64,000 nt of DNA from Patescibacteria group bacterium (lineage in GTDB: Bacteria > Patescibacteriota > Saccharimonadia > UBA4664 > SCTI01). The position numbers and the translations under genes are program-made. The number at the start of each line of letters is the position of its first letter. Position 1 is the stretch's first letter. The stretch spans positions 51,467-115,466 of the forward strand of contig SCTI01000001.1 of NCBI GenBank assembly GCA_004297735.1, written 5' to 3'. The notes beneath the pieces were generated by a model, which saw only the letters and a list, made by a program, of their open reading frames with translations, had not been told where the DNA came from and searched no databases. Positions 13,907 through 58,446 of the stretch are shown in pieces.

Positions 13907-14039
13907 GGAATTATTAAGATCGAACCAATGTGATTATGCTTGCAAAGCAGCTTAAAATGCCTCATAACTAATGCAACTTCTCGTGTCCGCAAATCTGCGT
14001 GCTGCTCAGTACGCAGCGAGCGACCACGAGGAGACGCAC

Positions 14040-14489
14040 ATGCCGCAGCACACTATCTTTCTTGCCAAGATCACACAGCTGAACCATCTCAGTAAGTCGG
14101 AGACGGTCGAGGTTGAGATCGATGCTCTCGATCCCGAGGCCGTGGAGTGGGACAACAACACGATTCACTTCACGCTCCATGCCCTGCAGTTCGCCGTCCC
14201 GGATGGACCCAAGCCTGAGAGCGTTGAATACGCCAACGGTCAGCTGCGTTGGGGTAGCTACAGCTGCTTCCCGTTCGCCCGCCACGATCCAGCTGAGGTC
14301 TACTTCACCGAACCGCTGATGTGGACGCTCAAGAAGGCCATGTGCGAAGGAACGGCTTCGTATGCTCAGGCCCGGGCCTGGATGAGGGAACATGGTCTCA
14401 CTGAGGCACTACAGGCCGGGGACCGCACTTTCTACGACCCTGCCAATCCTCGGTTCATCATTCTCCAGCCCGTGACCACCTTCGCGTAG
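14040..14489 (+). CDS. hypothetical protein on a GC-rich islet (149 aa)
   Basis: GAGGAG RBS 8 nt upstream of the ATG. Composition is clearly GC-richer than the flanks. Immediately downstream of tRNA-Leu(GAG). Confidence 0.5.
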   Translation: MPQHTIFLAKITQLNHLSKSETVEVEIDALDPEAVEWDNNTIHFTLHALQFAVPDGPKPESVEYANGQLRWGSYSCFPFARHDPAEVYFTEPLMWTLKKAMCEGTASYAQARAWMREHGLTEALQAGDRTFYDPANPRFIILQPVTTFA

Positions 14490-14508
14490 ATCACCCGTGT
14501 TGTACTTA

Positions 14509-14544
14509 GACCCCGTCTCGTCAAGAGGCGGGGTCCCTCGTTTT
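14509..14544 (+). terminator. intrinsic terminator (GACCCCGTCTC...GAGGCGGGGTC plus TTTT)
   Basis: 11-bp stem followed by a T-run. Confidence 0.6.
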
Positions 14545-14589
14545 GCTACTCGATTTTACCCCCATTTTATGGTACTCTTATCCATTGCC

Positions 14590-15483
14590 ATGAATATCAA
14601 ACATATTGCCATCATCTATAACCCCAAGAGCACCGGCGACTCGACCGCAGCCTCGCAGCAGCTTTACCACGACGTCCGCGAGCACCTGCCACATACCGGC
14701 GTGGAGCTAATGCCCACCAAATATCGTGGTCATGCCGCCGACTTAACCGAGATTTTGGGTCAAACCCGCACTGGCGTGGTGGTGGTTTCGGTTGGTGGAG
14801 ACGGAACTTATAACGAGGTGATCAACGGGGCGATGCGAGTGGCGCCAAGCCGCCGCCCTGTTTTGGTGCCATTTGCGGCTGGTAACGCCAACGATCACAG
14901 TCGCGAGCTACTAGGTGACGCCAAGGTGATGAGCCAGTTGATTGCCGGTGACACTCAGGTTATCGATTTGCTGCGCTTGTCGGTTCACAACCCTACCGGC
15001 GACGATGTTTTGCTGCACGCCCATTCTTACATCGGCTTTGGTGCCAGTGGGCGAGTGGCGCGCCTGTTGGATGAGCGCAACTTTGGGCCGATTAGCGAAA
15101 AGCTGATAGCGCTGGGTGAGATCTTGAGCCCGAGCGAGTTTAGCGCGGTGGTTAACGGGCACAGTAAAAAGCTGTATAGCATCGTGTGTAGCAACGTGTC
15201 GGTAATGGGCAAGTACTTAAAGGTAAGCCACCAAGCCGACTTGAGTGACGGCCACTTTGAGGTGGTTGAAACCGAGGCCCATTCACGTTTGGAGCTACTA
15301 AAAGAGGTTAGTCAGACCGCTACCGGTCAGCCGGCCGCAACCAAGAGAGTGCAAAGTTACAGCATGATGCTGATGGACGGAGTTCAGGCTCAGTTGGACG
15401 GCGAGCCAATCAGTTTGTCTAAGGCCTCAACGGTGTTTGTTACGGTTGAGCGCGAGGCGATTCGAACCTTAGCGGGTGAGTAA
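14590..15483 (+). CDS. diacylglycerol/lipid kinase catalytic-domain protein (YegS/BmrU family)
   Basis: IAIIYNPKSTGD...GGDGTYNEV DAGK_cat signature. Confidence 0.75.
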   Translation: MNIKHIAIIYNPKSTGDSTAASQQLYHDVREHLPHTGVELMPTKYRGHAADLTEILGQTRTGVVVVSVGGDGTYNEVINGAMRVAPSRRPVLVPFAAGNANDHSRELLGDAKVMSQLIAGDTQVIDLLRLSVHNPTGDDVLLHAHSYIGFGASGRVARLLDERNFGPISEKLIALGEILSPSEFSAVVNGHSKKLYSIVCSNVSVMGKYLKVSHQADLSDGHFEVVETEAHSRLELLKEVSQTATGQPAATKRVQSYSMMLMDGVQAQLDGEPISLSKASTVFVTVEREAIRTLAGE

Positions 15484-15543
15484 ATTACCAATTTTAGCCA
15501 CAAGTGTTTACACGTTAACTAATGCGTCTTATAGTGGTTATAT

Positions 15544-16302
15544 ATGTCAAAAGCATTAATAACAGTAGATGATGTCCGTAAGGATTATGATGATTTTCAG
15601 GCAGTCCGTGGCGTTAGCTTTGAGGTAAAGCGCGGCGAGGTGTTTGGTATTTTGGGGCCAAACGGCGCCGGCAAAACCACCACGCTGGAAATGATGGAGG
15701 GCCTACGCGAGATTTCGAGTGGTAGCGTAGTGCTAGATGAAATAGATGTTAAAAAGCACCCATACGATGTTCGCAAGATTATTGGCGTGCAGCTGCAGTC
15801 CTCATCCTTTTTTGAAAACAGTACGCTGGTTGAGCTGCTAACCGCTTTTGCCGCCATGTACAATCAGCGGGTTGAGCCAATCAAGTTGCTAGAGAGAGTC
15901 GGACTGGCCGAGAAAGCCAAGAGCTACCCGGAGCACCTGTCGGGTGGCCAGCGCCAACGCTTTAGTATCGCGGTGGCCTTGGTGCACGAACCGAAGGTGC
16001 TGTTTTTGGATGAGCCAACCACCGGTCTTGACCCGCAGGCTCGTCGCAACCTGTGGGAGCTGGTGCAGGAGATCCAAAAAGATGGCATTACCGTTATTTT
16101 GACCACTCACTATATGGAGGAGGCGCAGGTGCTGTGCGACCGCATTGCCATCATGGATGAGGGCAAGATAATTGCGCTAGATACACCGGACAAGCTAATA
16201 AAAGATCTGCTCAAGCGTGGCTTTAAGCCGCACGTCGAGGTGCAAAAGGCCACGCTTGAAGACGTCTTTATTGATTTAACCGGCAAGGATTTAAGGGATT
16301 AA
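15544..16302 (+). CDS. ABC transporter ATP-binding protein
   Basis: Walker A GPNGAGKTT, signature LSGGQRQR and Walker B LFLDEPT. Confidence 0.9.
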   Translation: MSKALITVDDVRKDYDDFQAVRGVSFEVKRGEVFGILGPNGAGKTTTLEMMEGLREISSGSVVLDEIDVKKHPYDVRKIIGVQLQSSSFFENSTLVELLTAFAAMYNQRVEPIKLLERVGLAEKAKSYPEHLSGGQRQRFSIAVALVHEPKVLFLDEPTTGLDPQARRNLWELVQEIQKDGITVILTTHYMEEAQVLCDRIAIMDEGKIIALDTPDKLIKDLLKRGFKPHVEVQKATLEDVFIDLTGKDLRD

Positions 16303-16303
16303 T

Positions 16304-17410
16304 ATGCGCGGGTACCTGTTTACAATCAGCCAGCTAACCAAGCTACTGGTGCGGCGCTACTTCCGTAGTCGCATAGCCATCTTCTTTTCGGTGTTCTTCC
16401 CGCTATTACTCTTGTTTGTGTTTGGCTTTTTATACAGCAACAACAAAGACGTGTCGTTTAAGGTGGCGCTATTTAATAACTCAAACACCGAGTTCGCTAA
16501 ACAGTTTGCTACCAACTTAGACCAAGTAAAGGCCTTGAGCATCCAAAAAGATCTCACCGATATGGACGCGGCTAAAGAAAAAATGAACCGCAGCGAAATC
16601 GATGCCATTATTGAGCTGCCACCCGAGTTTGGCCAGATCAACAGTCAGAACTTCCCCAGCGGACAGGTTAAGGTGCTGTACTCGCAGAACAGCCAGCAAG
16701 CTGGGCAGACCATTGGCTCGGTACTGCAGGGCATTCTGGATGGCGTAAACGTGCAGCTAACCAAGATACAGCCGCCGCTTACAGTTAAGGCGGAGTCTAC
16801 AGCCGACCAGGGCCTCACCGCCTTCGACTACGCCTTCCCTGGGCTGATTGGGTTCTCGTTGCTGGGTCTGGGCATCTTTGGTCCGCTCAACATGCTCCCG
16901 GCCGAAAAGAAGACCGGGGCGCTAACTCGTTTGCGGGTGACGCCGCTTCGCCCATCTCAGTTCATCATCTCGTACATGTTCTCATCGCTAGCAACCGGAG
17001 TGCTATCCATTACGGCCATGTTCTTGGTGGCGATTACCTTGTTTGAGTTCCACCTGGTCGGTAATCTGCTGGTCTTTGCTCTGTTCACCATCTTTGGCGC
17101 GATCATGATCTTTGGTATCGGTGTCGGCGTCGGCGGCTGGGCCAGTGACGAAAAGCAGGCGGCTCCACTAGGGAACATCATAACCTTCCCAATGATGTTC
17201 CTGTCCGGTATTTTCTTCCCCCGTTACCTAATGCCGGAGTGGCTACAGGGCGTAACGCAGTTTATTCCGCTAACTCCGGTGATTGATGGCATGCGCCTGA
17301 TCTTAACCGAGGGCAAAACCTTTATTGATCTTGGTCCCCAGTTGGGCTTGATGGCCATCTGGACGGTGGTGGTTTACACCATTGCCTTCCGCGTCTTCCG
17401 CTGGGATTGA
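16304..17410 (+). CDS. ABC-2 family transporter permease
   Basis: Translationally coupled to the ATPase. Six TM helices in the C-terminal half. Confidence 0.8.
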   Translation: MRGYLFTISQLTKLLVRRYFRSRIAIFFSVFFPLLLLFVFGFLYSNNKDVSFKVALFNNSNTEFAKQFATNLDQVKALSIQKDLTDMDAAKEKMNRSEIDAIIELPPEFGQINSQNFPSGQVKVLYSQNSQQAGQTIGSVLQGILDGVNVQLTKIQPPLTVKAESTADQGLTAFDYAFPGLIGFSLLGLGIFGPLNMLPAEKKTGALTRLRVTPLRPSQFIISYMFSSLATGVLSITAMFLVAITLFEFHLVGNLLVFALFTIFGAIMIFGIGVGVGGWASDEKQAAPLGNIITFPMMFLSGIFFPRYLMPEWLQGVTQFIPLTPVIDGMRLILTEGKTFIDLGPQLGLMAIWTVVVYTIAFRVFRWD

Positions 17411-17427
17411 AAACTCAGTAAAAGGCG

Positions 17428-17805
17428 CTACTTTACCATGATGGTGTCGTTGCCATCGCGGTTGGGTGCACCGGTAATCAACACCTCCAAGCCATCATCG
17501 CCGGCTGTAAGCGTGCGAACCACCTCTGGGCCAACTCGTACCGCATCAAGCGGTTTAAGCTCAACCACCTCATCATCCAGTAGCATCTGGCCGCTACCAC
17601 TCAGCACAATAAACACCTCTTCTTGGTATTCGTGTTTGTGCTTAAATGGGATGTTGCGATTAGGCAAAACCTTTTGATACCCCAGTCCCGACTCCGTTAG
17701 GTTGAGCGGCTTGGTAGCAAACCGCGCCTCCATGTCTTTATCGTGACCATACTTAGGTGACATGTTTTCGAGTTCGGCGAGATTGAGATGAGTGTAGTTA
17801 GACAT
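17428..17805 (-). CDS. cupin domain protein
   Basis: Cupin_2-like motifs H-x-H...E and G...P. Confidence 0.65.
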   Translation of the reverse strand: MSNYTHLNLAELENMSPKYGHDKDMEARFATKPLNLTESGLGYQKVLPNRNIPFKHKHEYQEEVFIVLSGSGQMLLDDEVVELKPLDAVRVGPEVVRTLTAGDDGLEVLITGAPNRDGNDTIMVK

Positions 17806-17873
17806 ATGACGATTTTAGCACGCGGTTCAAAACAGGCGTATAATAGAGGTATAGCTTAGCGAAAGGTCTTGCC

Positions 17874-18572
17874 ATGGCCGACCAGAACATTACAACCACC
17901 AAAACCAACACACTCGCAATTGCGGGCTTAATAACGGCCTTCTTTTTACCACTGGTCGGTCTGATCTGTTCAATAATTGGCCTGACGCAAATTAACAAAC
18001 GTAAAGAACGTGGTAGGGGTTTAGCGATCTCGGGCATTGTGGTGTCGATTTTGGTTGGTATAGCCCAGCTAATCACACTGGTTATCGTTGTGGCGGCGAT
18101 GAACTCCGGCGTAACGCTTACGACCTACCGCGACAACACCATTGGTTACAGCGTAAAGTACCCTGAAGGCTGGAATATTGCCCCGCAAAATGTAGAGGGC
18201 GTTCAGGGCATAATCATAAAAAAAGAGTATAAGCAGACCGGCAAATCTTACGGCCAGATTGAGGTTGGCTACTTTGCTCCGCCGGCCAACGGATACAGCC
18301 AAGACATCTTACAAGCCACCGCTGACGGAATTAAAAAGAGCAACAAAAACACCACCGTACTGTACGAAAACAAAAGTAGCGCGAACGGTTTAAGCACGCT
18401 AACATTGCTGACGACTTACGATGGCGAGACCGGAAAGATAAAGGCTAAGACCACAATTATGCTCAAAAAAGACAACGCCTTGTTTGTAATATCAACGCAG
18501 GCGCCAGAGGAAAACTGGGATAAGTACTCAGATAGCTTTGACGAGATTCATAACACCTTTACGCCAAATTAA
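17874..18572 (+). CDS. membrane protein with a DUF4190-like N-terminal TM pair and an extracytoplasmic domain
   Basis: Two TM helices, then a soluble domain. Confidence 0.55.
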   Translation: MADQNITTTKTNTLAIAGLITAFFLPLVGLICSIIGLTQINKRKERGRGLAISGIVVSILVGIAQLITLVIVVAAMNSGVTLTTYRDNTIGYSVKYPEGWNIAPQNVEGVQGIIIKKEYKQTGKSYGQIEVGYFAPPANGYSQDILQATADGIKKSNKNTTVLYENKSSANGLSTLTLLTTYDGETGKIKAKTTIMLKKDNALFVISTQAPEENWDKYSDSFDEIHNTFTPN

Positions 18573-18655
18573 ACTAAATAATAACTAAAGTGAGAACGGG
18601 GCGGTGCGTATAGTGCACCACCCCGTTTGACAGCGTCGGCGCTAGGCGCCTAGGC

Positions 18656-18976
18656 TTACGACCAGCGGTCGAGAGCCGACTGGGCGGCCTGCTGGACCCG
18701 TGGGTCCAAGTCCTCCTTGGCCATCTTGCGCAGCTCGACCTTGTATTCCGGTCGGCAGCGCGGGATGCGCTCCTTGATTCGGATGCAGGTGTTCAGGCGC
18801 AGAACGGAACTGCCATCGCGCAACCACTTCAGAGAAGTAATTGTGCCGGAAACCGCGTCGAAGCTGGAGTCCTCGAGCTCCACAATGCCCTCGAAGAGGT
18901 CATCGAGCTCCTTGTCGGTCAGCGGCTCCTGCCAGTCGTCGAACTTCCGAGCGAGCGCTTCGATACGATCGTTCAT
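18656..18976 (-). CDS. hypothetical protein on a GC-rich islet (106 aa)
   Basis: ORF. GC-rich composition. Divergent from the ORF at 19191. Confidence 0.5.
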   Translation of the reverse strand: MNDRIEALARKFDDWQEPLTDKELDDLFEGIVELEDSSFDAVSGTITSLKWLRDGSSVLRLNTCIRIKERIPRCRPEYKVELRKMAKEDLDPRVQQAAQSALDRWS

Positions 18977-19024
18977 GTCTCTCCCTGATGGGTCGAAGAT
19001 GGACTAAAGTCTTAAGCTGTCAAT

Positions 19025-19046
19025 ATCCTCATCTATTTCTGAGGAT
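19025..19046. promoter_or_regulatory. 7-bp perfect inverted repeat ATCCTCA-N8-TGAGGAT in an AT-rich divergent promoter region
   Basis: Read directly. Candidate operator. Confidence 0.3.
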
Positions 19047-19190
19047 GTTACATAATAGCATAAGTAGTATAAAAAGTCAATAGTACCTTGAATATTATGA
19101 TCTGTTGAGGCATTAATGCCATCTGGAATTGTAAAAACTGATCTGAAGTCGTATACTGGGCCCACGTTCCAGATACGAAAGGACGTTGAC

Positions 19191-19997
19191 ATGAGTCAGC
19201 AGAAGACCAGCCGTCTGATCATTCAGGGTCAGCCGGATGACATTCGTCGTCGGTATCACCTCGATATCGACTTCCCGTTCGGCCACATCAACTTGAGCCC
19301 AGGGAAGCCAGACTCCGGCGGGTTGGTCCACTTCACCTACGGCTCCTTCGTTGGCTACTGGGCCAGTGCTTACCCAAGTCATTCCCAGATTCCGGGTCGC
19401 TTGCATCACATCATCAGCCAGATCGCTCGGGCCAGGTGGAGCAGCAACCTGCCGCTAGCTGGTGGGATTGCGGTACGTACCAATCACATGCGCGTGTTCA
19501 TCAACAAGCGCATTCCCGCTAATAAGCGCCGCTCCGCTCTCCACCATCTCGACAATGTTGTCATCAAGGCGCTCGGCGCAGATCTGCGGCCGGATTACGA
19601 CAGCGGGCAGATGTGGTACAACGACCCAGGGCCTCAGGTCGATGTGGTTCGCCCGGACTGGCAAGCTGGGGTTAACGTGTCCGATCCGGAAGGGGATCGT
19701 CGGATCAGGCTTGACCCTGACGTCAACTGGAAGACCTTCAGCGGCGAGCGTTTCGTCAACGTCAAGGAGCAGTTCTCGATCCATCGGATCCGTAGCTGGC
19801 CGAAGGAACAGATTGAGCTTCTGCATACGCTGTTCTGGTCGCAGGGGAGCGAGTCGTGCGACATCTTTCCTCCGCTCACTGGCAGCGGCATGGAGTTGAC
19901 GTTGCGCAAGGGCTTGGCCTGGACGTGGGCGGACGTCAACCGCGAGTGGACCAATCGGTTCGCCACCGGCGTTGACCTGCGCGCCCTCGCGGCTTAG
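19191..19997 (+). CDS. hypothetical protein on a GC-rich islet (268 aa)
   Basis: ORF 19116-19997. I chose the internal ATG (MSQQKTSRL...) after an AAAGGA RBS. Confidence 0.5.
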   Translation: MSQQKTSRLIIQGQPDDIRRRYHLDIDFPFGHINLSPGKPDSGGLVHFTYGSFVGYWASAYPSHSQIPGRLHHIISQIARARWSSNLPLAGGIAVRTNHMRVFINKRIPANKRRSALHHLDNVVIKALGADLRPDYDSGQMWYNDPGPQVDVVRPDWQAGVNVSDPEGDRRIRLDPDVNWKTFSGERFVNVKEQFSIHRIRSWPKEQIELLHTLFWSQGSESCDIFPPLTGSGMELTLRKGLAWTWADVNREWTNRFATGVDLRALAA

Positions 19998-20011
19998 CCG
20001 TATCTAGAACA

Positions 20012-20050
20012 AAGAGGCCGAGCGTCATGCTCGGCCTCTAAGCGTTTTTA
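20012..20050 (+). terminator. strong intrinsic terminator (AGAGGCCGAGC-GTCAT-GCTCGGCCTCT plus TTTTTA)
   Basis: 11-bp perfect stem followed by a T-run. Confidence 0.75.
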
Positions 20051-20066
20051 TTACTGGTAGCTAGTG

Positions 20067-20255
20067 TTACTTCCAGCCGAAGGTCTGGCCTAATATCCAC
20101 ACGGTAATCGCAATGGAAATAAAGAACAGACCTAGACCTACTGGGCTACCCCAGCTGAACCACGAGCCCCACGAGCGCCAGTGCTTGAGGCTCTCGACGT
20201 GGCTCCAGTCGTACTCTTTTTCGTAGTCTCTGGGACTTTTACTTTCGTTTGCCAT
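20067..20255 (-). CDS. small membrane protein (62 aa)
   Basis: W-rich N-terminus and one TM helix. Confidence 0.4.
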   Translation of the reverse strand: MANESKSPRDYEKEYDWSHVESLKHWRSWGSWFSWGSPVGLGLFFISIAITVWILGQTFGWK

Positions 20256-22213: not shown

Positions 22214-22239
22214 ACCGAAGTGCTCGATAATTCCTGGTG
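22214..22239. repeat. left copy of a 26-bp imperfect direct repeat (ACCGAAG-N6-ATAATTCCTGGTG) bounding the AT-rich islet
   Basis: 21 of 26 nt identical to 23993-24018. The last 13 nt are identical to the tRNA-Gly 3' trailer. Confidence 0.6.
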
Positions 22240-22371
22240 TTAGCGACTCAGTAAGCGAGGCGTCATTGCCTTTGGCTGAAGTTTATTTTGAGTAGCTGTG
22301 TTCGTGGGCCAATTGTACGCCCGTGACAATCGTGTTGTGCATGGAGGTAAAAATTAACAAAATATTTCAGC

Positions 22372-23448
22372 TTATGCTTGTGCTGGTCCTCTCCATCGAT
22401 AAGCTCGTCTAAATCCAGCATCCTCAGCCTCCTTAACCGTCTTGGCATAGAATTCACCTCGTTTTGGGGTGATTTTTGCCTTGTCATATTGTTGGTCAAA
22501 CGGCAAGTGGTATATCTTGTCTCGCTTATTAGATATATTGCACTTGATGCAGGGGTAGTTCTTGTTCATTTTAAAGTTTTCTTTTAATTCAATTTTTAGC
22601 TCTTTTGCAAATCTTTTTGCTAAATCCGATAGTGTTGTCGATGTTGCGAAAACAGCTTTAACGGACCTGCCCTTATTTGCATCTCGATACTGGAAAACTG
22701 TGCCAAAAAACTGAAATATATGCTTTTCATAAATGACTTTGAATTTTGACCAATTCTTGCATTGTACGACTACTATTTCATTTTCCTTGCTTGCAATAAT
22801 ATCCCTGCCCAAATCTTCCAGCCCCTTGAATATGCCGACATATTCAACCTCATATCCTTTAGATTCGTAAGTATAGCCTACGTATCTTTCATACATCTTC
22901 CCGATTTGCCATTTGCTTTTTGGCCTGCTCCAATATCTATCAAGAGCCAATTGATTCCTCTCCGTGGTGCTTAGTTTTCTGTACTCCTTTTTTGAAACAT
23001 AATTAGTAACCTTATCTTCCAGCTCCTCCTCGCTGTAGTCCGCAAGAATCCTCCTATCTTCTTCGGATATATTGTCAACCTCTTCCTTGAGGTCGATAAG
23101 AAAAGGGGCAACACTTTCATAGTACGCAACAAGGTACTCAAGAATCTTTTTGTCTGAGATTGCCCTTCTCCTTTCCCGCGCCATATTTGCGACTACCTCG
23201 CTTGCCCGAACTGCGGGTACGTGCTTGTATTTTAAGAAGTCAACCAAATTTTGATCTTGAAGTTGCTGGTAATACTCAAATGCACTTGCTAAAGTAGGAA
23301 AACCAATCTGCCTCTCCTTTATAATTTGCTCTAAGTCTTTCTTTTGGTCTCGGATATGCTCTAAGTATTCTTGTGCTTGTTCGCGAACTTCATGCCATTC
23401 ACTTATTGTCTGCTGCAATTCTGCCCGTACATCTTCGTAGTACCCCAT
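22372..23448 (-). CDS. coiled-coil protein with a C-terminal Mrr-like PD-(D/E)xK restriction-endonuclease domain
   Basis: The N-terminal 170 aa or so are heptad-rich. C-terminal GYEVEYVGIFKGLEDLGRDIIASKENEIVVVQCKNWSK is an Mrr_cat-type D...D-x-K/QCK core. AT-rich codon usage. Confidence 0.7.
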   Translation of the reverse strand: MGYYEDVRAELQQTISEWHEVREQAQEYLEHIRDQKKDLEQIIKERQIGFPTLASAFEYYQQLQDQNLVDFLKYKHVPAVRASEVVANMARERRRAISDKKILEYLVAYYESVAPFLIDLKEEVDNISEEDRRILADYSEEELEDKVTNYVSKKEYRKLSTTERNQLALDRYWSRPKSKWQIGKMYERYVGYTYESKGYEVEYVGIFKGLEDLGRDIIASKENEIVVVQCKNWSKFKVIYEKHIFQFFGTVFQYRDANKGRSVKAVFATSTTLSDLAKRFAKELKIELKENFKMNKNYPCIKCNISNKRDKIYHLPFDQQYDKAKITPKRGEFYAKTVKEAEDAGFRRAYRWRGPAQA

Positions 23449-23903
23449 TATTTATATGCCTTTTCGAAATCTTCAATAAATAAGTCATTATAATAGGCTT
23501 TAATGTCCTTTTTAGCAGTAACGTTTACCCATTCCTTGTCTCTGGTGCATGAGCAATTAGGGTATCTGTTGCAACCCAAGAATTCACCATACATCCCGTC
23601 CCTTTTAACCATATAGCCTGTCTTACATTCAGGACAACTCCTATTTATCCTATGTATGCTTTTAGCAATTTTGGCTTCCTCGTATTCGTACGAATTTACA
23701 TATTCGTCACGCATTGATTCAATCTCTTTTTTAAGCTCCGCTAGAGATGTTGATGAAATGAAATTAGTTTTCAATAACTCTCTAGTAAGAAGTGACTTCT
23801 TTTTTTCATGGCGCCTTTTAGCATACTCGTCGAATAAGTCTATTAGCCAGCCTATTATTGTTAGGATTAGGAAAATACCTATAAGTATGATAAAAGGCTC
23901 CAT
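23448..23903 (-). CDS. membrane-anchored protein with a C-terminal topoisomerase-type C4 zinc ribbon
   Basis: Start at MEPFIIL with GGAGG 7 nt upstream. One TM helix. CPECKTGYMVKRDGMYGEFLGCNRYPNC is a zf-C4_Topoisom pattern. The stop overlaps the start of the downstream nuclease gene (TAATG). Confidence 0.65.
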   Translation of the reverse strand: MEPFIILIGIFLILTIIGWLIDLFDEYAKRRHEKKKSLLTRELLKTNFISSTSLAELKKEIESMRDEYVNSYEYEEAKIAKSIHRINRSCPECKTGYMVKRDGMYGEFLGCNRYPNCSCTRDKEWVNVTAKKDIKAYYNDLFIEDFEKAYK

Positions 23904-23992
23904 ACCGCTTCCTCCAAGATAAATATACCACTGTATCACGCTTTAAAGTTGGTTTTTAAGCAAGATTAACCGGTGGAATACTAGATGTAATC

Positions 23993-24018
23993 ACCGAAGC
24001 GTCAAATAATTCCTGGTG
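23993..24018. repeat. right copy of the 26-bp direct repeat, overlapping the 3' end of tRNA-Gly
   Basis: See 22214-22239. Confidence 0.6.
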
Positions 24019-24664: not shown

Positions 24665-24741
24665 TGGTGGGCGCTGAGGGACTCGAACCCCCGACCCTCT
24701 CGGTGTAAACGAGATGCTCTAGCCAACTGAGCTAAGCGCCC
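24665..24741 (-). tRNA. tRNA-Val(TAC)
   Basis: Revcomp GGGCGCT TA GCTC AGTTGGCTA GAGC A TCTCG TTTACAC CGAGA ... TTCGAGT ... AGCGCCC A CCA. Confidence 0.9.
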
Positions 24742-24853
24742 GGGTCGATTACGACCAGGGAATAGTAGCAAATATTGGGGCAATAATCAATCCTGGCTGG
24801 TTAAAATGAAGCGCCACCCTCCGAATCCGTTCAGAGGGTGGCGTGAGCCGCGG

Positions 24854-25258
24854 TTAGGCGGCGACGAGTTCGGCCTCGAGCTTCTTGTTGCGGGGAGGGT
24901 GGGCCGCGGTGATCAGCTTGCGGAACATCTGTTCGATGCTACGCCGGTTGCTGGTGTCGCTGCAGCGGTCGAAGAGATCGGCGGTCATCAGGAACTGGGG
25001 GCGGTTACCCCGGTGTAGACGCACCGGCATGCCGTCGGCGCGAGTCAGGGTGCCAGAGACGAGAATTTCGTCACCTGGCACTCCCACAATGATGCGGCCA
25101 GTCCCTCGGCCCGCGATTTCGAAAACGAAGCTGACTTGGTTGTCGGTACCGCTCGCTTCATCTGGCTTGATCTCCGTCTGGAGATCCTCGGCGGCCAGAA
25201 TGGCCAGCCGGATGAGGCGTTCGCTACGGGTTTCTGCTTTGCTCGTCGGTGTGGGCAT
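24854..25258 (-). CDS. hypothetical protein on a GC-rich islet (134 aa)
   Basis: Start MPTPTSK with an AGGAGG RBS 5 nt upstream. GC-rich. Confidence 0.5.
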   Translation of the reverse strand: MPTPTSKAETRSERLIRLAILAAEDLQTEIKPDEASGTDNQVSFVFEIAGRGTGRIIVGVPGDEILVSGTLTRADGMPVRLHRGNRPQFLMTADLFDRCSDTSNRRSIEQMFRKLITAAHPPRNKKLEAELVAA

Positions 25259-25388
25259 GTTGCCTCCTGGCGAGTTGGGAACAGTATCTGTATAATGACA
25301 TATTGACTCAAATTGCGCAAGTCGATTTGGGGTTGCTGACAACAGGTTAGAACCCATGTATAATTTGGGAGTTCCTCGAAAAGCTTAT

Positions 25389-25462: not shown

Positions 25463-25487
25463 TTAATTATATTGTCCGGGAGAGTGG

Positions 25488-45348: not shown

Positions 45349-47145
45349 ATGACTAAACTCGATACCAGTAAAACCGAATGGGACCTGTCGCCGTTACTAG
45401 CGGGCGATGATGACCCTAAGATCGAGGAATACCGCAAGGCAGTTACCGAAAAGGTTGATGCGTTTGTTGAGAAATGGCGCGATCGGGACGACTACCTGAA
45501 AGATCCCAAGGTGCTACGCGAGGCACTGGATGAGTATGAGAGGCTTCATGCCATGCCTGGTCTTGCCTATGATGATCTTTATTTTCATTTACGCACCCGA
45601 GTGGAAACTCAAAACAAAGACTTAACCGCAAAGCTTCAGTTAGCAGAAGATTTTGCACTTAGTATCTGGAATAAAATGCAATTTTTCTCGCTAAAAATTG
45701 GTCAAATACCTGAAGACGTGCAGAAGTCGTTACTGCGAGCCGATGAGTTAAAGACGTATTATCACTGGCTAGATAAGGTTTTTAGGGCTGCTCGCTACAA
45801 ACTCAGCGAAAAAGAGGAAGCAATTTTAAACCTCACATCAACTGCCAGTTATAGCAACTGGGTAAAAATGCTTCAGCGATTTATCAGCAAAGAGGAACGG
45901 AAAGTGCTCTTTGCCGATGGATCAACTGGGAAGGCTAACTGGGAGATGCTATCCTCGCTAGCTGGCGACGATTCTGTCAAGGTTCGCCAAGCGGCTAAAG
46001 TAGCGATTGAGGATATTCAGAACAAATATGTAGACGTCGCTGAGGCTGAGCTTAATTCTGTGTTACAGAATCAAAAGGTAGGAGACGAGCTGCGGGGTCA
46101 CAAGAGGCCAGATCAGCATCGTCATATGAATGATGACATCGATAGCGATGTCGTGGATGCAGTAGTCAAGACGGTTGAGTCGCGTAATGACCTTTCAAGG
46201 CGCTTCTTTGATTTAAAGGCTAAGTTGCATAAGGTGGATCATCTTGCCTATAGCGAACGCGCGGTTGGGTATGGAGAGGCCACCGCCGAGTACCCTTATG
46301 ATCAAGCCGCGAACCTGGTAGGCGAGGTATTCCAAGAGCTCGATCCAGATTTCTATGACATTTACAGTAATATGTTGGCGACAGGCAGAGTGGACGCTTT
46401 GGCGCGCAAAAACAAAAGTGGAGGGGCTTTTTGCATTAGTATAGGCCCTCAACATCCAGTGTATGTGATGCTCAATCACACCAACACAATGCGAGATGTT
46501 GCTACCATCGCTCACGAGATGGGTCATGCTATTCATAGCACCTTAAGTATTCGGGCTCAAAACGCCCTCAACTGCGACTACCCTACTTCTGTAGCCGAAG
46601 TGGCCAGCACCTTTATGGAAGACTTTATCTATCAGCGGCTTCTCGAAGAGGCAGATGAAGAAACTGAGCTAAGTTTGCGCGTAGGCCTGCTGAATGATCT
46701 TATTGCTAGTTGTCACCGTCAAATTGCTTGTTATCAGTTTGAGCAAGATATTCATCAAGGATACAGACAAAAGGGGTATCTCTCTAAGGACGAAATAAAC
46801 GATCTATTTAATGCCCGTATGGAGGGGTATCTTGGAAAGCATGCTGAGGGTTCTGATAACTTCTGGGTGGCTTGGCCTCATATTCGTAACTACTTTTATG
46901 TCTATTCATATGCCAGTGGGATATTAATTTCTAAAGCGCTTCAGTCTAAAGTGAAGAAGGATAAAGCGTTTATTTCAAAGGTAAAAGAGTTCCTTTCCGC
47001 TGGCTCGTCAAAGTCGCCAAAAGAGATCTTTGCTGATATGGGGATAGATATTACCGATAAGGCGTTTTGGCAAGAGGGCTTAAAAGAGATTGAGCAGCAG
47101 CTCGATGAAACCGAAAAGCTAGCCAAAAAGCTCGGCAAAATTTAG
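45349..47145 (+). CDS. pepF: oligoendopeptidase F (M3B family)
   Basis: HEMGHAIH zinc motif. About 600 aa. Confidence 0.85.
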   Translation: MTKLDTSKTEWDLSPLLAGDDDPKIEEYRKAVTEKVDAFVEKWRDRDDYLKDPKVLREALDEYERLHAMPGLAYDDLYFHLRTRVETQNKDLTAKLQLAEDFALSIWNKMQFFSLKIGQIPEDVQKSLLRADELKTYYHWLDKVFRAARYKLSEKEEAILNLTSTASYSNWVKMLQRFISKEERKVLFADGSTGKANWEMLSSLAGDDSVKVRQAAKVAIEDIQNKYVDVAEAELNSVLQNQKVGDELRGHKRPDQHRHMNDDIDSDVVDAVVKTVESRNDLSRRFFDLKAKLHKVDHLAYSERAVGYGEATAEYPYDQAANLVGEVFQELDPDFYDIYSNMLATGRVDALARKNKSGGAFCISIGPQHPVYVMLNHTNTMRDVATIAHEMGHAIHSTLSIRAQNALNCDYPTSVAEVASTFMEDFIYQRLLEEADEETELSLRVGLLNDLIASCHRQIACYQFEQDIHQGYRQKGYLSKDEINDLFNARMEGYLGKHAEGSDNFWVAWPHIRNYFYVYSYASGILISKALQSKVKKDKAFISKVKEFLSAGSSKSPKEIFADMGIDITDKAFWQEGLKEIEQQLDETEKLAKKLGKI

Positions 47146-47176
47146 TCTATAATCTGTAACAACAATCATAAGCGCA

Positions 47177-47205
47177 TTGACAAAATTGACATTTGATGCT
47201 ATTAT
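47177..47205 (+). promoter_or_regulatory. near-consensus sigma70-type promoter: TTGACA-N17-TATTAT
   Basis: -35 at 47177-47182, -10 at 47200-47205. Followed by a hairpin leader at 47218-47241 and a GGAGGAG RBS. Confidence 0.5.
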
Positions 47206-47282
47206 GGCGCTTATATCCTGATGAGGCGAAATCCTCATTAGAACCCTCTGACAATCTATCACTACAATCTCCGGGAGGAGAT

Positions 47283-47735
47283 ATGAAGAGCATGAAGCGC
47301 AATGCAGCACGTCTGCTGCTGTTCGCCTTCTTCGTGGCGGGACTCGTTTTCGTCGCACTGCAGGTGCCGAAGGAAGCAGTCTTCGTGACGATTCTGGCCG
47401 CCATCACCGTCTTCGGGGTGATCAGTGCAATCATCTCGCACAAGCGGTTCGGCGCGGGCGCGGAAGTCGTTCGGGAGACGAAGAGTCTCCAAATCGATCA
47501 CGATGATTTGATCGACCAGATCAAGGCGTACAGCAACGCCGCCCGTCGGGCTGACGCCCGGAGCGACCTCGCCTACAAGCAGCGTTCGCATCCGGGCCGC
47601 TGGTTCGCCCGTGCGTTTGGGCTGCCGGACTCGAGCTCCTTGTCTATCGCCGATGGCGACATCAGGGAGTACAGGTCTCGGCGACCCATCGCCGTCACTC
47701 GGCTGACCGAGGCCGGGCCGGAGGTCGTCCGGTGA
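47283..47735 (+). CDS. hypothetical membrane protein (GC-rich islet)
   Basis: ATG after GGAGGAGAT. Two TM helices then a soluble tail. Confidence 0.5.
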   Translation: MKSMKRNAARLLLFAFFVAGLVFVALQVPKEAVFVTILAAITVFGVISAIISHKRFGAGAEVVRETKSLQIDHDDLIDQIKAYSNAARRADARSDLAYKQRSHPGRWFARAFGLPDSSSLSIADGDIREYRSRRPIAVTRLTEAGPEVVR

Positions 47736-48064
47736 CCCGGCGGCGCTGGATTCCGATCCTGATGCCGTTCGCGGTTGTCGGCGGGCTTCTGCTCGCTCGG
47801 AGGCTGCTCACCCCGGTCCCGTGGCACGAAGTGCCGCAGGAGTGGGTGCCCGGTGTATCCGATTATGGCGATTCGTCGACCATCGTCGAGGATCCGGCTC
47901 GCTCGGGGGAACCGGATCCGGATGCGCCCTGGGTGTCATTCGGGCCTCCTCTCAAGCCGACCACCCTTGGGGGTCATCGAGTTCTGGATTCCCGCCGACC
48001 CGGCGGCGTGATCTGGCTCGAAGATGCCGAGATGCCGAGAGGCCACGGCCTCGATCGGCCCTAA
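47732..48064 (+). CDS. hypothetical membrane-anchored protein (GC-rich islet)
   Basis: GTGA stop-start overlap with the upstream gene. One TM helix. Confidence 0.45.
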   Translation: MTRRRWIPILMPFAVVGGLLLARRLLTPVPWHEVPQEWVPGVSDYGDSSTIVEDPARSGEPDPDAPWVSFGPPLKPTTLGGHRVLDSRRPGGVIWLEDAEMPRGHGLDRP

Positions 48065-48230
48065 GGGCCACACTCGTCCGTTCGGACGGATCTCACTGTA
48101 AAAGGTGGGGTCCGTCCGGCGGGCGGTTTTACTTTTTAGCCATTATTTGCTAGTATAAGCGTATTCGGTCGACTGGTTGTCGGCCATTTTGTTAGAAAAA
48201 TTGAATAACAACTGAATAGAGAGAAACAAT

Positions 48231-52286: not shown

Positions 52287-52364
52287 CTTACTTTTAGGTA
52301 GTTAGAATTAAGAATTTTTTAATCTTTAGCTGCTATGCTGATAAAAATAAAGAGGGAGTTTAGC

Positions 52365-52640
52365 ATGGCAGGATTTACAAAAGAACAAAAACAAGAGTTG
52401 GTAGACATCGTAAAGCCCATGATCGATGAGCTAGCTCTCCAGATGGGGAAAGGCTTTAATGAGGTAACCGAACGATTCGCACGAATGGATGACCGGTTTG
52501 ACCGAATCGAGATTCGATTAGATAGGGTAGAGGGACGACTCGATAGTCTGGAATATAAGTTTGATCTAATGGACCAAAGGGTAACAAAGACCGAGGCAGC
52601 CGTAATTCACCATCGGCTGGTAGCTCAGGCAAAAGCTTAG
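52365..52640 (+). CDS. hypothetical small coiled-coil protein
   Basis: AGGGAG RBS. Heptad-repeat sequence. Confidence 0.4.
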   Translation: MAGFTKEQKQELVDIVKPMIDELALQMGKGFNEVTERFARMDDRFDRIEIRLDRVEGRLDSLEYKFDLMDQRVTKTEAAVIHHRLVAQAKA

Positions 52641-55052: not shown

Positions 55053-55316
55053 TTATTGCACCACAAATATTCGAGTAGGCGTGGTGGACCCGCCAGAATC
55101 TACGTTCCAAGTATAAGTCCCTTTGGTGAGGGGCGCGTTAACTGTGACCGAGGTACTTTTGAGGTTTGGGTAGCTCGGGCTGCCTCCGGGACCGCTAATA
55201 TGTAGACGGTATACGCCATTACCCCCGGGCGACCAGCTAAAGGTCGTTGCTGCGCCGCTATGGAGTTTGGCCTGGTTGGCAGGGCTGATTACCACAAAAG
55301 GAGGCGCCGCCGGCAC
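55053..55316 (-). other. possible frameshifted continuation of the PBP1A C-terminal Ig-like region (second Ig-like module in another frame)
   Basis: The alternate frame encodes a beta-sandwich-like sequence (TFSWSPGGNGVYRLHISG...TYTWNVD) resembling the preceding module. The overlap is at a G/C-rich run. Confidence 0.3.
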
Positions 55317-57912
55317 TACCCCCAGAGGCCACGGTTACGGTTGTTTCACTACTGCCGCTATAAAGTGCGGCGTCGGTTACGACTGCTCGCAGCGTGTAGC
55401 TGCCGGCTGGTGGAGAGTTGGTAAAGTTGTAGGTGGTTGAGCCGCTAATCTCCTGGGTGGAAATTATTTGGTCGTTAAGATACACCGTTAAGCTTTTAAG
55501 CGGGTGTGTCCCCTGGACCACGTTCACGCTAATTTGAATTGGTCCGGTTCCGGTAGCGCTAATCTGGGCGGTCGGTTTAATATCGGTACATTTGTGGACG
55601 TCATCTTTGTCGACTGGGATGGCTCCACCGCTGGTGTAACCGAGCGTACGCGCCAGGGCAGCAATCGGAGGAAACCACTTACTGTACTGTGGGTCGCTGG
55701 GCGGAACCTCGGCGCTAATCTGGGCGGTCGTAACGGTCTCAACCGCTTCGGGTGGGGTACATTCGGTTGCGAGCTTGCCGCTAACTTTATCAACCTGACC
55801 GGTTTGGGTGCCCGCAACGTTTTCTGGTCGATACCAGCTAGGGAAGATGTCGGTGCGGCGCTGCTTGGTTGAGGCGGTTGGGAGCTTACCGGTATTGGCA
55901 TCCAGGGTTACCTCTTTAATACCGCTTGGTTTGGTGAACTCCTTGTTAGGGTACCCCTGCAGGGCTGACTTCATATAGGTGTTCCAAATCGGCGCCGATA
56001 CCGTGCTGGCCGACGAGGTCATTGGTTTGTTGTTGTTATTTCCGGCCCAAACGCCTGTTACTAAATCGGGGGTATAGCCCATAGTCCAGGCATCATTGTA
56101 GTTTTCGGTGGTACCGGTTTTAGCTGCCACGGTCCGCCCCGGAATAACCAGCGGGTTGTTGGCGCCAAAGATGTAGCTGCGAGCTTTGTTGTCGCTCAGG
56201 ATACTAGAGATCAAGTAAGGAATTTGAGGATCAAGCGCTTTTTTACCCTTTGGCTTTTCGTTATCTTCAACCACCTTATTGTTGGGGTCGGTTACCTTTA
56301 GGATTGGGGTGGCATCGTAATGGGTGCCGCCGTTAGCGAAACTTTCGTAGGCATTAACCATCTCGTTCAGCTTAACCTCGCCCGAACCAAGTACCAAGCT
56401 CAAGCCGTAGGTGCTTGGGGACTCATTGAGCGTGGTGATGCCCAGGTCTTTAGCGGTTTTAAGCGATTCAGGAATACCGGCCAGCCAGAGCATCTTAACC
56501 GCTGGGATGTTGAGCGAGCCAGCCAGCGCGGTACGAACCGACTGGACCCCATAAAACTTGCCGGTGTAGTTTTTTGGCTTATAGTTACCAAAGTCGGTTT
56601 GAACGTCGTAGATGGTACTGCCGGGCCCCCAGTTCTTTTTAAAGCCGGTGGCGTAAACAATTGGCTTAAAGCTAGAACCAGGCTGGCGCTTGGCCAGAGC
56701 GACGTTAAAGTCTCCATAATCCGGGTCGTTATAGTCATACGAGCCAACCATGGCTAAGACCTGGCCGGTCTTAGGGTCGGCCGAGACCAAAGCAGCATTT
56801 GATCCGCCGAGCCGCCGCACATTGGTCATATTCTTTTTAATAGCTTCCTCGGCCTGCTTTTGCTTTTCGATATCAAGTGAGGTGATTACCTTGAGCCCAC
56901 CATCCTCTACCTGCCGAACGCCATACTTGGCCTCCAGATACTCTTGAGCGTAGCGGGCAAAGTGAGGGAAGTCGGTTTTTTGGGTGGCAATCTTGGGGAC
57001 CGGCGATAGGTTCAGTTTGGCAACCAGGTTGTCCAAAGATGGCCCGCCCTGAATCTTGGCGGCATCGGCCTCCTGCTGGCTAATCTTCTTTTGCTCCACC
57101 ATGCGATCCAGTACGGTGTGCTGGCGAGCAATTAAGGCGTCACGGTTCTGGCCGTAAGGTGAGTAGTAGGTGGGCAGCTGCGGTATCGAAGCTAGGGTAG
57201 CCGATTGGGCTAAAGTCAGGTTTTTGGCACACTTGTCACCTTGAATATTTTGAGGGAAGTAGGTGCGACAGGCCGACTCAACCCCGTAGGCCTGTGAGCC
57301 GTAAGGGATCTCATTGAGGTATAGCTTAAGGATGTCATCTTTTTTATAGAGCTGTTCAATCTCGAAGGCTAAAATTAGCTCTTTGATCTTGCGAGTATAG
57401 GATCGCTCAGGTGTAAGCAGAGCGTTCTTAACGTACTGCTGGGTGATGGTTGAGCCACCGCCCCTAGTTGGATCGCGGAACAAAATCCCAGTAAAGGCGC
57501 GACCAACTCCCATAAAACTAAAGGCACCGTGCTTGTAAAAATCCTTGTCCTCAATTGCTACGGTGGCGTCCTTAATGCTCTGCGGCATTTCCTGGAACTC
57601 GATTACCTTACGGTTCTTGTCGCCGTGGACCTCAAAAATCTTGGTCTGACCGGTGCGATCATAAAAAACGGTGTTTTGGGAGCCGATCCGAGCGTTAATT
57701 TTTCCGGGGCTAGGAAGATCTTTGGCAAAGTAAGCCAAAACCAGGAACATAGCCAAAAAACCGGCCCCGGCAATCTTGCCGGCCCGCTTGGCGCCCTCAG
57801 CGTTTAGCCAATAGCGCTTAAAGTTACTAGGAGTTAAGAAAGACGCCCCGAAGCGCTTGGCGCGGCCGGCAAAGCTGCGATCACTGGAGCGGATAACCCG
57901 TCGTTTAGCCAT
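55258..57912 (-). CDS. penicillin-binding protein 1A (bifunctional glycosyltransferase/transpeptidase) with a C-terminal Ig-like extension
   Basis: GT51 motifs (EDKDFYKHGAFS; RGGSTITQQ). Transpeptidase SxxK (SSFKP), SxN and KTGT. N-terminal TM. Confidence 0.9.
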   Translation of the reverse strand: MAKRRVIRSSDRSFAGRAKRFGASFLTPSNFKRYWLNAEGAKRAGKIAGAGFLAMFLVLAYFAKDLPSPGKINARIGSQNTVFYDRTGQTKIFEVHGDKNRKVIEFQEMPQSIKDATVAIEDKDFYKHGAFSFMGVGRAFTGILFRDPTRGGGSTITQQYVKNALLTPERSYTRKIKELILAFEIEQLYKKDDILKLYLNEIPYGSQAYGVESACRTYFPQNIQGDKCAKNLTLAQSATLASIPQLPTYYSPYGQNRDALIARQHTVLDRMVEQKKISQQEADAAKIQGGPSLDNLVAKLNLSPVPKIATQKTDFPHFARYAQEYLEAKYGVRQVEDGGLKVITSLDIEKQKQAEEAIKKNMTNVRRLGGSNAALVSADPKTGQVLAMVGSYDYNDPDYGDFNVALAKRQPGSSFKPIVYATGFKKNWGPGSTIYDVQTDFGNYKPKNYTGKFYGVQSVRTALAGSLNIPAVKMLWLAGIPESLKTAKDLGITTLNESPSTYGLSLVLGSGEVKLNEMVNAYESFANGGTHYDATPILKVTDPNNKVVEDNEKPKGKKALDPQIPYLISSILSDNKARSYIFGANNPLVIPGRTVAAKTGTTENYNDAWTMGYTPDLVTGVWAGNNNNKPMTSSASTVSAPIWNTYMKSALQGYPNKEFTKPSGIKEVTLDANTGKLPTASTKQRRTDIFPSWYRPENVAGTQTGQVDKVSGKLATECTPPEAVETVTTAQISAEVPPSDPQYSKWFPPIAALARTLGYTSGGAIPVDKDDVHKCTDIKPTAQISATGTGPIQISVNVVQGTHPLKSLTVYLNDQIISTQEISGSTTYNFTNSPPAGSYTLRAVVTDAALYSGSSETTVTVASGGSAGGASFCGNQPCQPGQTP

Positions 57913-58054
57913 GTAATGGTGTGCTCATAATTGTAGAGCTATTATACCGTTTTGGCGCTCACCAGCCAAGCCAATATGCTTAAGGTTGCAATCGGGTGCA
58001 GAGATTGTAAAATTGGTCCAAGTTCTTCAACAACTACCTAGGGGATAATCTTCC

Positions 58055-58393
58055 TTGAGCCATACGACAAGTATTGATCTTTCGGCAGGCCCGACCGAGA
58101 TTCGCCAACATCACGTCAACACCGAGGTGGCCGGCTGGACAGTTCGAGTCTGGGCATTCGGCTCCGATGCAGTTACGCCGCGATGTGTTGCCCTGCTCAT
58201 CGAGTCCGCGAACGGTGATCGGGAGGTTCTCGATTTCACTCAGCCGGGCATGCGCCGGGCAATTCAGCTGGCGTCAGCTCCGACTCAGGCTTTCACCGAA
58301 GAGGCCTTCAACGAGTGGCGCGATAACACGCGGCGGCTCCCGGGTGTCACTCCGCTCGATGTCATCCTCCCATCCACCGCCTCTCAGCGCTAG
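58055..58393 (+). CDS. hypothetical protein on a GC-rich islet (TTG start uncertain)
   Basis: ORF. GC-rich. Hairpin plus TTTT downstream. Confidence 0.35.
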   Translation: MSHTTSIDLSAGPTEIRQHHVNTEVAGWTVRVWAFGSDAVTPRCVALLIESANGDREVLDFTQPGMRRAIQLASAPTQAFTEEAFNEWRDNTRRLPGVTPLDVILPSTASQR

Positions 58394-58446
58394 CTGAGGG
58401 GCGGTTGCCCTTTTAACCCAAGAAGATCAAAGTCAACCGCTATGCT

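Follow-up and report, generated by a model that had tools for sequence, protein, structure and literature searches.

Hypervariable GC-rich islets of orphan genes at fixed slots in a Saccharimonadia genome and its relatives

Replacement-type flexible genomic islands, or hypervariable regions, sit at fixed loci amid core genes and are represented by O-antigen and envelope islands and by marine metagenomic islands. We analysed a stretch of 64,000 nucleotides from a Saccharimonadia genome (Patescibacteria group bacterium, assembly GCA_004297735.1, contig SCTI01000001.1, positions 51,467 to 115,466; hereafter the window, to which all coordinates refer unless another locus is named), in which a preliminary description had marked six short GC-rich segments with only unrecognisable open reading frames (ORFs) as repeated small imports from a high-GC donor. 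These islets, numbered 1 to 6 in order (13915-14545, 18600-20050, 24800-25300, 25564-28420, 47170-48140 and 58040-58400), resemble replacement-type islands in being fixed between conserved genes, in lacking mobility genes, in having alleles that cannot be aligned in near-identical strains (25-42% against 98-100% protein identity between two relatives, J and S), and in their more diverged flanks, consistent with imports by homologous recombination. They differ in being tiny (one to five genes, 0.3-2.9 kb), in holding orphan proteins only and not glycosyltransferases and similar enzymes, and in being GC-richer than the core with one alien signature in common.

Other described systems are matched in part. 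Genomic islands of Patescibacteria are transferred mostly within the phylum, according to the passages of one report used here (PMC12455944). The islets share with the islands in those passages the phylum, an atypical composition and within-phylum transfer; the report applied island predictors to 125 aquifer metagenome-assembled genomes (MAGs), and syntenic hypervariable slots, a shared GC-rich signature or leader-mediated insertion are not described in the same passages. Three islets lie by tRNA genes, and their atypical composition and own promoters and terminators also recall tRNA-linked islands and integrative elements, from which they are distinguished by the absence of any integrase or mobility domain in the islet ORFs and of direct repeats derived from tRNA 3' ends, the only flanking repeat being a 55-nt leader that does not overlap the tRNA; a tRNA-derived repeat does occur at the low-GC Mrr islet nearby, by tRNA-Gly (22240-24005). 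Like integron cassettes they are small, promoter-proximal, swappable orphan units with a repeated junction at islet 4, but intI and attC-like imperfect inverted repeats are lacking, and each unit has its own promoter and terminator and is dispersed with the others across 45 kb. No integrase (IntI) was found in the Pfam-scanned proteins (~42 of ~70 called ORFs, from outside ~28.5-38.2 kb and 59.6-64 kb and with all but a few short ORFs of 11.8-16.3 kb) or in precomputed Pfam labels for 38.2-59.6 kb. With regard to a diversity-generating retroelement, the same proteins and labels, which cover the window's share of a 273-kb contig, hold no reverse transcriptase, and neither a template/variable-repeat-like sequence nor a repeat family common to the islets was found at 13-29 kb; the islet genes were also rejected as targets of such an element, as whole genes differ and not short A-specific tracts. 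The islets are a new example of hypervariable genomic islets, distinguished by the coherent GC-rich signature across the cassettes of sibling genomes. The reading we favour, and consider probable, is that they consist of lineage-restricted orphan genes in small, self-contained transcription units at fixed hypervariable slots amid core and tRNA genes in one subclade of the Saccharimonadia (Saccharibacteria/TM7), replacement-type in nature and fed by a clade-private GC-rich pool.

Conserved slots and cassette exchange in related genomes

Twelve islet ORFs are distinguished here (I1, I2a, I2b, I3, I4a to I4e, I5a, I5b and I6). They were compared with their counterparts in J (JGI 3300006790, Ga0098074_1000007), S (SRR14570218_1413), L090 (SRR24975958_44912) and L184 (ERZ23498390 scaffold_30), in which backbone proteins are ~80-93% identical to those of the window and gene order is conserved, in L181 (SRR28674887), with backbone proteins 66-80% identical, and in L003 and L004, which are more distant. 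Among GTDB representatives, the nearest NusA loci belong to Saccharimonadia/Saccharimonadales MAGs (79% and 76% identity). This comparison shows that the slots and several of the gene families are common to the sibling genomes. As in replacement-type hypervariable islets, relatives carry the same slot with non-alignable alleles between near-identical flanks.

The backbones of J and S are almost the same, with proteins 98-100% and DNA 91-94% identical, whereas their islet proteins are only 34% (I3), 42% (I4b) and 25% (I6) identical, and the nucleotide alignment of the two is interrupted at I6 as well as over the I3 and I4 genes. Flanks adjoining these breaks are 89-91.6% identical, compared with ~94% farther off. 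Between S and L090, with backbones 85-88% identical, I4c is 92%, I4d 77% and I4b 73% identical. Divergence in place cannot give this pattern among J, S and L090, which on the alignments is one of cassettes replaced via recombination with divergent alleles. As judged from these contigs, the cassette alleles are shown to be decoupled from the backbone phylogeny and hence to have been exchanged horizontally among related genomes. By phylogenetic criteria the cassettes are horizontally acquired, since they are incongruent with the backbone; what holds of the horizontal origin first proposed is exchange among sibling genomes, and not a series of independent imports.

Other cassettes have followed the genome. 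Fourfold-site identity to J is 0.46 for I2b, 0.41-0.55 for backbone genes, 0.58 for I3 (33 sites) and 0.28 for I4b (saturated); as the value for I2b equals that of the backbone, some cassettes co-diverge with the genome. Both vertical inheritance and horizontal exchange thus occur, and the idea of recent acquisition, as far as I2b is concerned, is not supported. Independent acquisition by this genome is unsupported as well, since five sibling or cousin genomes, obtained from unrelated samples, have homologues in these slots.

Islet 4 allowed an insertion to be traced. It follows tRNA-Cys and tRNA-Leu(taa) (25389-25563) and carries a 55-nt module of promoter, 5' untranslated region and ribosome-binding site on the plus strand (25599-25653), which ends at the ATG of I4a. 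A second copy (27485-27539, plus strand) ends just ahead of the ATG of I4e, so that a perfect 55-nt direct repeat, ribosome-binding site included, flanks the I4a-I4b-I4c-I4d operon (25653-27417, plus strand; 185, 197, 104 and 72 aa). The leader is 89-93% conserved before I4e in L090 and before I4b in J. L184 has an empty site, in which tRNA-Cys, tRNA-Leu(taa), a single leader and I4e are contiguous and I4a-d are absent. Because of this single-leader arrangement, the window is read as carrying a 1,886-nt insertion that consists of I4a-d, a terminator-like hairpin (27416-27445, recognised by eye) and the second leader. Most simply, a circular or tandem intermediate would have integrated by one crossover at the leader; alternatively, L184 would have undergone the reverse deletion. 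On this sequence evidence, at least one block, I4a-d, is shown to have entered by recombination at the conserved 55-nt leader. The content of the islet 4 cassette varies among J, S and L090: I4b homologues occur in all three (40-54% identity to the window), and I4c homologues in S and L090 (35-36% overall, 45-47% across the aligned N-terminal part). I4e (27540-28370, plus strand), a 276-aa orphan immediately upstream of LemA, has homologues directly ahead of LemA in L184 (80%) and L090 (33-34%) and is absent in J and S; its family comprises 11 members in the alignment, and an AlphaFold2 model (mean confidence, pLDDT, 66) gave no fold match in the PDB.

The remaining slots are occupied as follows. 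After tRNA-Leu(gag) (13820-13906), islet 1 holds I1 (14040-14489, plus strand; longest ORF from 13971), a 149-aa orphan with a 56% identical homologue, P0015, in L181 in the same slot past a gene for an FAD oxidase; it is followed by a terminator-like hairpin (14509-14535, plus strand; 11-bp stem with 8 GC pairs, then a T-run). In islet 2, the 106-aa orphan I2a (18656-18976, minus strand) has as its positional counterpart in J a 105-aa gene of unrelated sequence, and the 268-aa orphan I2b (19191-19997, plus strand; longest ORF from 19116; AlphaFold2 model poor, pLDDT 40) has a 73% identical syntenic orthologue in J after the ABC transporter and a 52% identical homologue in L085 in a different context. 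A bidirectional terminator-like hairpin follows (20013-20039). I3 (24854-25258, minus strand; 134 aa) is flanked by tRNA-Val (24665-24741) and tRNA-Cys and is followed by a terminator-like hairpin at 24843-24812; its homologues in J (40%), S (42%) and L184 (47%) lie in the slot from MscL/tRNA-Val to tRNA-Cys. Islet 5, ahead of nusA, has a promoter-like site (47177-47205, plus strand; TTGACA-17-TATTAT with TG upstream, 11/12 matches), followed by I5a (47283-47735, plus strand; 150 aa, two predicted transmembrane helices), by I5b (47732-48064, plus strand; 110 aa, a single transmembrane helix), the start of which overlaps the I5a stop, and by a terminator-like site (48110-48126). In J the same slot holds a 165-aa homologue of I5a with two transmembrane helices (z 6.9) and an 86-aa homologue of I5b (z 6.7), with the start overlapping likewise and the pair preceding nusA; in L003 and L004 the pepF-nusA slot encodes unalignable small transmembrane proteins whose genes are likewise rich in GC at third codon positions (GC3) and in NTC codons. 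I6 (58055-58393, plus strand), a 112-aa orphan amid the divergent genes for a penicillin-binding protein (PBP) and tyrS, has syntenic homologues in S (37-39%) and J (29-35%) and is absent from L003 and L004, where the gaps measure 104 and 77 nt. The islet 5 promoter and the four terminators (islets 1, 2, 3 and 5) are present as consensus matches.

Composition and coding character of the islet genes

All six segments are, as first reported, GC-richer than the window (0.566, 0.569, 0.609, 0.561, 0.615 and 0.607 in order, against a mean of 0.518); among same-length windows they rank at the 92nd-99.9th percentile (z 1.2-2.7), with islet 5 as the extreme (500-nt peak of 0.67). Their characterisation as much GC-richer holds for 47170-48140, 24800-25300 and 58040-58400, the other segments being merely 4-5 points over the mean, and is overstated for four of the six. 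Eight tRNA genes were found by ARAGORN and Rfam, the latter giving tRNAs only, and the preliminary description had placed most islets either by tRNA genes or between convergent or divergent housekeeping genes. Adjacency to tRNA genes applies to islets 1, 3 and 4; the other position fits the divergent gap of I6 and not islet 5, where the flanking pepF and nusA are co-directional (both plus strand).

The 12 islet ORFs are coding-like, with pooled GC contents of 0.70, 0.63 and 0.44 at the third, first and second codon positions, and the independent Logan and NCBI gene calls agree on their frames; NCBI carries the products as hypothetical proteins of Patescibacteria group bacterium under EPO04 locus tags. 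Shadow ORFs on the wrong strand are ruled out by the order GC3>GC1>GC2, the two sets of gene calls and the conservation of both homologues and transmembrane helices.

Eight genes (I1, I2a, I2b, I3, I4e, I5a, I5b and I6) carry the compositional signature strongly and were compared with 55 backbone ORFs. Their index NTC/(NTC+NTT) is 0.65-0.88 compared with 0.33±0.12 in the backbone, and the difference persists when all 12 islet ORFs are set against the backbone (Mann-Whitney p = 9e-6). For the single genes, GC, GC3 and NTC index are 0.588, 0.72 and 0.76 (I1), 0.607, 0.81 and 0.78 (I2a), and 0.61, 0.74 and 0.75 (I4e); GC and NTC index are 0.589 and 0.74 (I3) and 0.611 and 0.65 (I6); I5a has a GC of 0.627, a GC3 of 0.79 and an NTC:NTT ratio of 28:4, I5b a GC of 0.67, and the three known copies of I2b are all GC-rich (0.586, 0.607 and 0.634). 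Codon fractions in islets and backbone are 0.75/0.26 for TTC, 0.58/0.33 for ATC, 0.35/0.13 for GTC, 0.27/0.10 for CTC and 0.18/0.07 for TCC, whereas ACC and GCC are lower in the islet genes. Since ACC and GCC fall and the 12 backbone genes of highest GC3 still show the backbone codon pattern, a shift in GC3 alone is inadequate to explain that of the islets. Dinucleotide relative abundances (rho*) differ likewise between islets and backbone (GA/TC 1.30/0.86; TA 0.46/0.93; AA/TT 0.96/1.22; GC 0.99/1.25), and the contrast persists at the junction of codon positions 3 and 1, where protein coding constrains least (TC 1.54/0.91; TA 0.50/1.09). The GC-normalised dinucleotide distance to the backbone (delta*, x1000) is 124 for the six pooled segments and 185 for the eight strong genes; in 500 backbone sets sized as the pooled segments it was 30±10.5 with a maximum of 71, and none of the 500 reached 124. 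The k-mer signature is thus not uniform across the window, a finding with which the preliminary description would have fallen had it gone the other way.

In every genome compared, the genes of the islet slots exceed their surroundings in GC and are mostly NTC-preferring. The GC-rich genes of J lie at a delta* of 169 from the J backbone, and the islets of window and J are about as close to each other (37.5) as their backbones (36.9). The eight genes, here and in the siblings, thus have one coherent signature: a GC of ~0.60, a GC3 of 0.66-0.81, NTC preference, poverty in TA and richness in GA/TC. By compositional criteria the islets are horizontally acquired, with an intermediate result for I4a-d alone. 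That block (25653-27417; GC 0.55, delta* 98, NTC index 0.33-0.47) has codon usage near that of the backbone, and islet 4, taken at first as one GC-rich islet, is heterogeneous: I4e shows the strong signature and I4a-d do not. Two membrane-protein genes of the backbone, those for MscL and an ABC permease, are also NTC-enriched.

Source of the cassettes

As the term unrecognisable had implied, none of the 12 islet ORFs has a significant match in Pfam, PHROGs or PADLOC; below threshold there are only I4b with HTH_IclR/MarR_2 (E 0.04-0.06) and PsyrT (E 0.004), and I5a with DUF7333 (E 0.09). By eye, the sequences of I4a, I4b and I4d look like winged-helix proteins, of which I4b alone gives the weak helix-turn-helix matches. 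Seven of the 12 proteins were searched for homologues by one word-indexed search and a full HMMER scan of 1.84 billion representatives. The latter gave 22 matches at E<=1e-3 for six proteins; three are the window's own proteins, and the sole named one, a repetitive Chromobacterium protein, is probably spurious. In the seven families, the confirmed homologues with examined context all lie on contigs of related Saccharimonadia and, with one exception, in the corresponding slot. A tblastn search of 50,697 phage and 72,556 plasmid records with all 12 proteins gave no match. Scans of IMG/VR gave a single, unconvincing match of 31 residues for I2b (E 5e-4) and no relative of an AAA_25 protein encoded next to the I2b orthologue of J; a viral origin was rejected on these scans and on the empty PHROGs and PADLOC searches.

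That AAA_25 protein belongs to a GC-rich block (0.56-0.61) following the I2b orthologue in J (positions 11009-13096 of its locus L083), which encodes an AAA_25 ATPase of 342 aa, two small ORFs and a DnaG-type zinc-ribbon protein and is missing from the window. From its gene content, it is possible that the block is the replication module of an element carrying such cassettes.

A trivial explanation, the stitching of GC-rich fragments of another organism into a Saccharimonadia contig during assembly or binning, was raised in the preliminary description and has a negligible probability. Logan contigs from run SRR8426595, made with a second assembler, do break at 13877, 20177 and 27510, and an exact repeat of 55 nt is a common assembler k-mer size. 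The same contigs are nevertheless 100% identical to the window, one spanning 13877-20177 and another 27510-63702 (positions deduced, here and for the breaks), and run past both ends of islets 2, 5 and 6, past the right end of islet 1 and through the join of I4e with LemA. Where they end, the sequence is repeated, namely as the CCAGGAATTAT motif after a tRNA 3' end and as the 55-nt leader; the contig starting at 27510 begins inside leader copy 2, as a branch in a k=31 graph would give. Homologous genes in the same slots of J, S, L090, L184 and L181, from five unrelated samples, complete the refutation.

Direct acquisition from a high-GC donor, for instance an actinobacterial host, with a donor signature that has not yet ameliorated, had been put forward as speculation and is very unlikely. 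The signature is that of GC-rich bacterial DNA (TA ~0.46, GA/TC ~1.3), I6 is missing from the more distant L003 and L004, and Actinobacteria serve as hosts for the cultivated Saccharibacteria, which are naturally competent (PMC10633639). Among nine arbitrarily chosen phages, Mycobacterium phage L5 is nearest to the islets in dinucleotide signature (delta* 60), but the other actinophages are distant (phiC31 154, BFK20 176, PA6 172) and Pseudomonas and Myxococcus phages close (81 and 85), so the signature is not diagnostic. The closest homologues are found in close relatives only and not in any high-GC group: the large protein collections returned no actinobacterial or other named homologue for the seven proteins, and none of the 12 matches a phage or plasmid record. 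Moreover, the homologues sit at the same slots of sibling genomes, I2b has the synonymous divergence of the backbone, and the pepF-nusA slot genes of L003 and L004 share the signature across a deeper divergence. The composition could instead have been made in place if the slots were recombination hot spots, where GC-biased gene conversion, or relaxed selection exposing GC-ward mutation, lifts GC3. The loci demonstrably recombine, a GC3 of ~0.72-0.81 is steady in orthologues and positional analogues of very different depths, I2b co-diverges with the backbone and is still GC-rich in three genomes, and the NTC enrichment of the MscL and ABC permease genes would fit as well. We nonetheless regard this origin as improbable, because the rise in GC3 is limited to NTN and NAN codons and accompanied by the drop in ACC and GCC, which is not a uniform GC drive, I4a-d recombine without being strongly GC-rich, intergenic DNA is AT-rich, and fast-evolving backbone genes are not GC-rich (30378-31127, 41-64% identical, GC 0.527; 52335-52640, GC 0.444). 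The last observation also rules out fast evolution alone as the cause of the high GC.

There is a minor chance that the islets are decayed remnants of integrated Saccharimonadia mobile elements (small plasmids, phages or integrative elements) that were GC-richer than their hosts. The replication-module-like AAA_25/DnaG-type zinc-ribbon block next to the I2b orthologue in J, the different context of the I2b homologue in L085, the three islets adjoining tRNA genes and the promoter and terminator of each islet all agree with such an origin, which is countered by the lack of any integrase, att repeat or match to a phage or plasmid protein family, by the IMG/VR results for I2b and the AAA_25 protein, and by the cassettes themselves, which are single- or two-gene units of 0.3-1.5 kb with breakpoints that hug the ORFs. 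For the reading that we prefer, replacement at fixed slots from a clade-private pool, DNA of relatives would be taken up and then integrated either via the conserved flanks, by homologous recombination, or at the leader, by a single crossover. Natural competence has been shown in Saccharibacteria, and allelic exchange via homologous recombination has been used for their engineering (PMC10633639). The cassettes would be drawn from a pool with its own composition, possibly on an unsampled mobile element, and the rapid turnover of alleles may reflect diversifying selection connected with roles in host interaction, immunity or the envelope. Several points weigh against this reading. No mobility gene, integrase or att repeat lies alongside the GC-rich islets within the window; a reservoir with the composition of the pool was not found, every homologue context examined having a backbone GC of 0.50-0.55; the comparison of siblings rests on 5-6 metagenomic contigs; and the synonymous divergence from J is like that of the backbone for I2b and apparently also for I3, so that at least some cassettes have long been vertically inherited yet are still foreign in signature, which plain recent import does not predict. 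The AAA_25/DnaG-zinc-ribbon block of J suggests an unsampled GC-rich replicon as the source of the pool, and a GC-rich host may still be its ultimate source. A wider proposal can be offered only tentatively: a subclade of the Saccharimonadales would keep a private pool of orphan cassettes (GC ~0.60, TA-poor, NTC-preferring, each with its own promoter and terminator) that are shuffled among genomes at a fixed set of slots, in part by recombination at the leader; the pool would owe its distinctness to replication on an unrecognised extrachromosomal element or to an ultimate derivation from GC-rich hosts, and would encode fast-diversifying determinants of the interaction of the epibiont with its host or its phages.

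Other features of the window and significance

Further observations concern the surroundings of the islets. The 11-mer CCAGGAATTAT (tRNA CCA end + GGAATTAT) stands right after four tRNA genes (13904, 24006, 25561 and 63903) and has five copies in all, compared with 0.86 expected; a role as a signal for processing, termination or recombination is possible, and the motif probably explains the k-mer assembly break at 13877. A copy of this motif at the tRNA-Gly 3' end (24006-24016) and an orphan copy (22227-22237) bound a low-GC islet (22227-24016, GC 0.36-0.40) like an att repeat, with no integrase; the islet encodes an Mrr-type restriction endonuclease (22372-23448, minus strand) and a Top1-type zinc-ribbon protein (23448-23939, minus strand), and the low-GC island at 21.7-24.0 kb has a dinucleotide signature indistinguishable from the backbone. 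Islet 2 is edged both here (20067-20255, minus strand) and in J (L083, 13227-13406) by a gene for a Trp-rich membrane peptide of 59-62 aa (…HWRSWGSWFSWGSPVGLGL…), 82% identical between the two genomes. Next to islet 5, pepF (oligoendopeptidase F, 45349-47145) is GC-poor (0.454, GC3 0.47) and shares only 49-53% identity with the pepF of each relative, J included, its neighbours being 78-93% identical; a housekeeping gene may here have been replaced by a xenologue. A small gene without Pfam match between clpC and radA (52335-52640) is 64% identical in S and 35% in J, and its DNA cannot be aligned between J and S; as it is hypervariable yet GC-poor (0.444), hypervariability and GC-richness are separable. 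The ORF 108-557 (minus strand, 149 aa, no Pfam match; GC 0.56, GC3 0.67, NTC index 0.76) has the islet signature and, lying outside the range covered by the preliminary description, may represent a seventh islet. The gene 3401-3769, located in the backbone close to uvrC, encodes a strong Phage_holin_4_2 domain (E 1e-26); genes of this type occur outside prophages in many bacteria.

Saccharibacteria are dependent on bacterial hosts and have tiny genomes, and to our knowledge little is known of the determinants of their host range or of the upkeep of flexible genes in such streamlined genomes. The islets indicate that genome flexibility is partly concentrated in a few very small slots, in which orphan genes turn over far faster than the backbone, and make I3, I4, I5 and I6 candidate loci for strain-specific functions. 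They also call for caution in annotation, as composition alone would suggest repeated imports from GC-rich hosts, which homology and synteny do not support. The pair J and S offers a clean natural test case of recombination within a naturally competent lineage of the Candidate Phyla Radiation, and the signature of the slot genes points to a separate gene pool.

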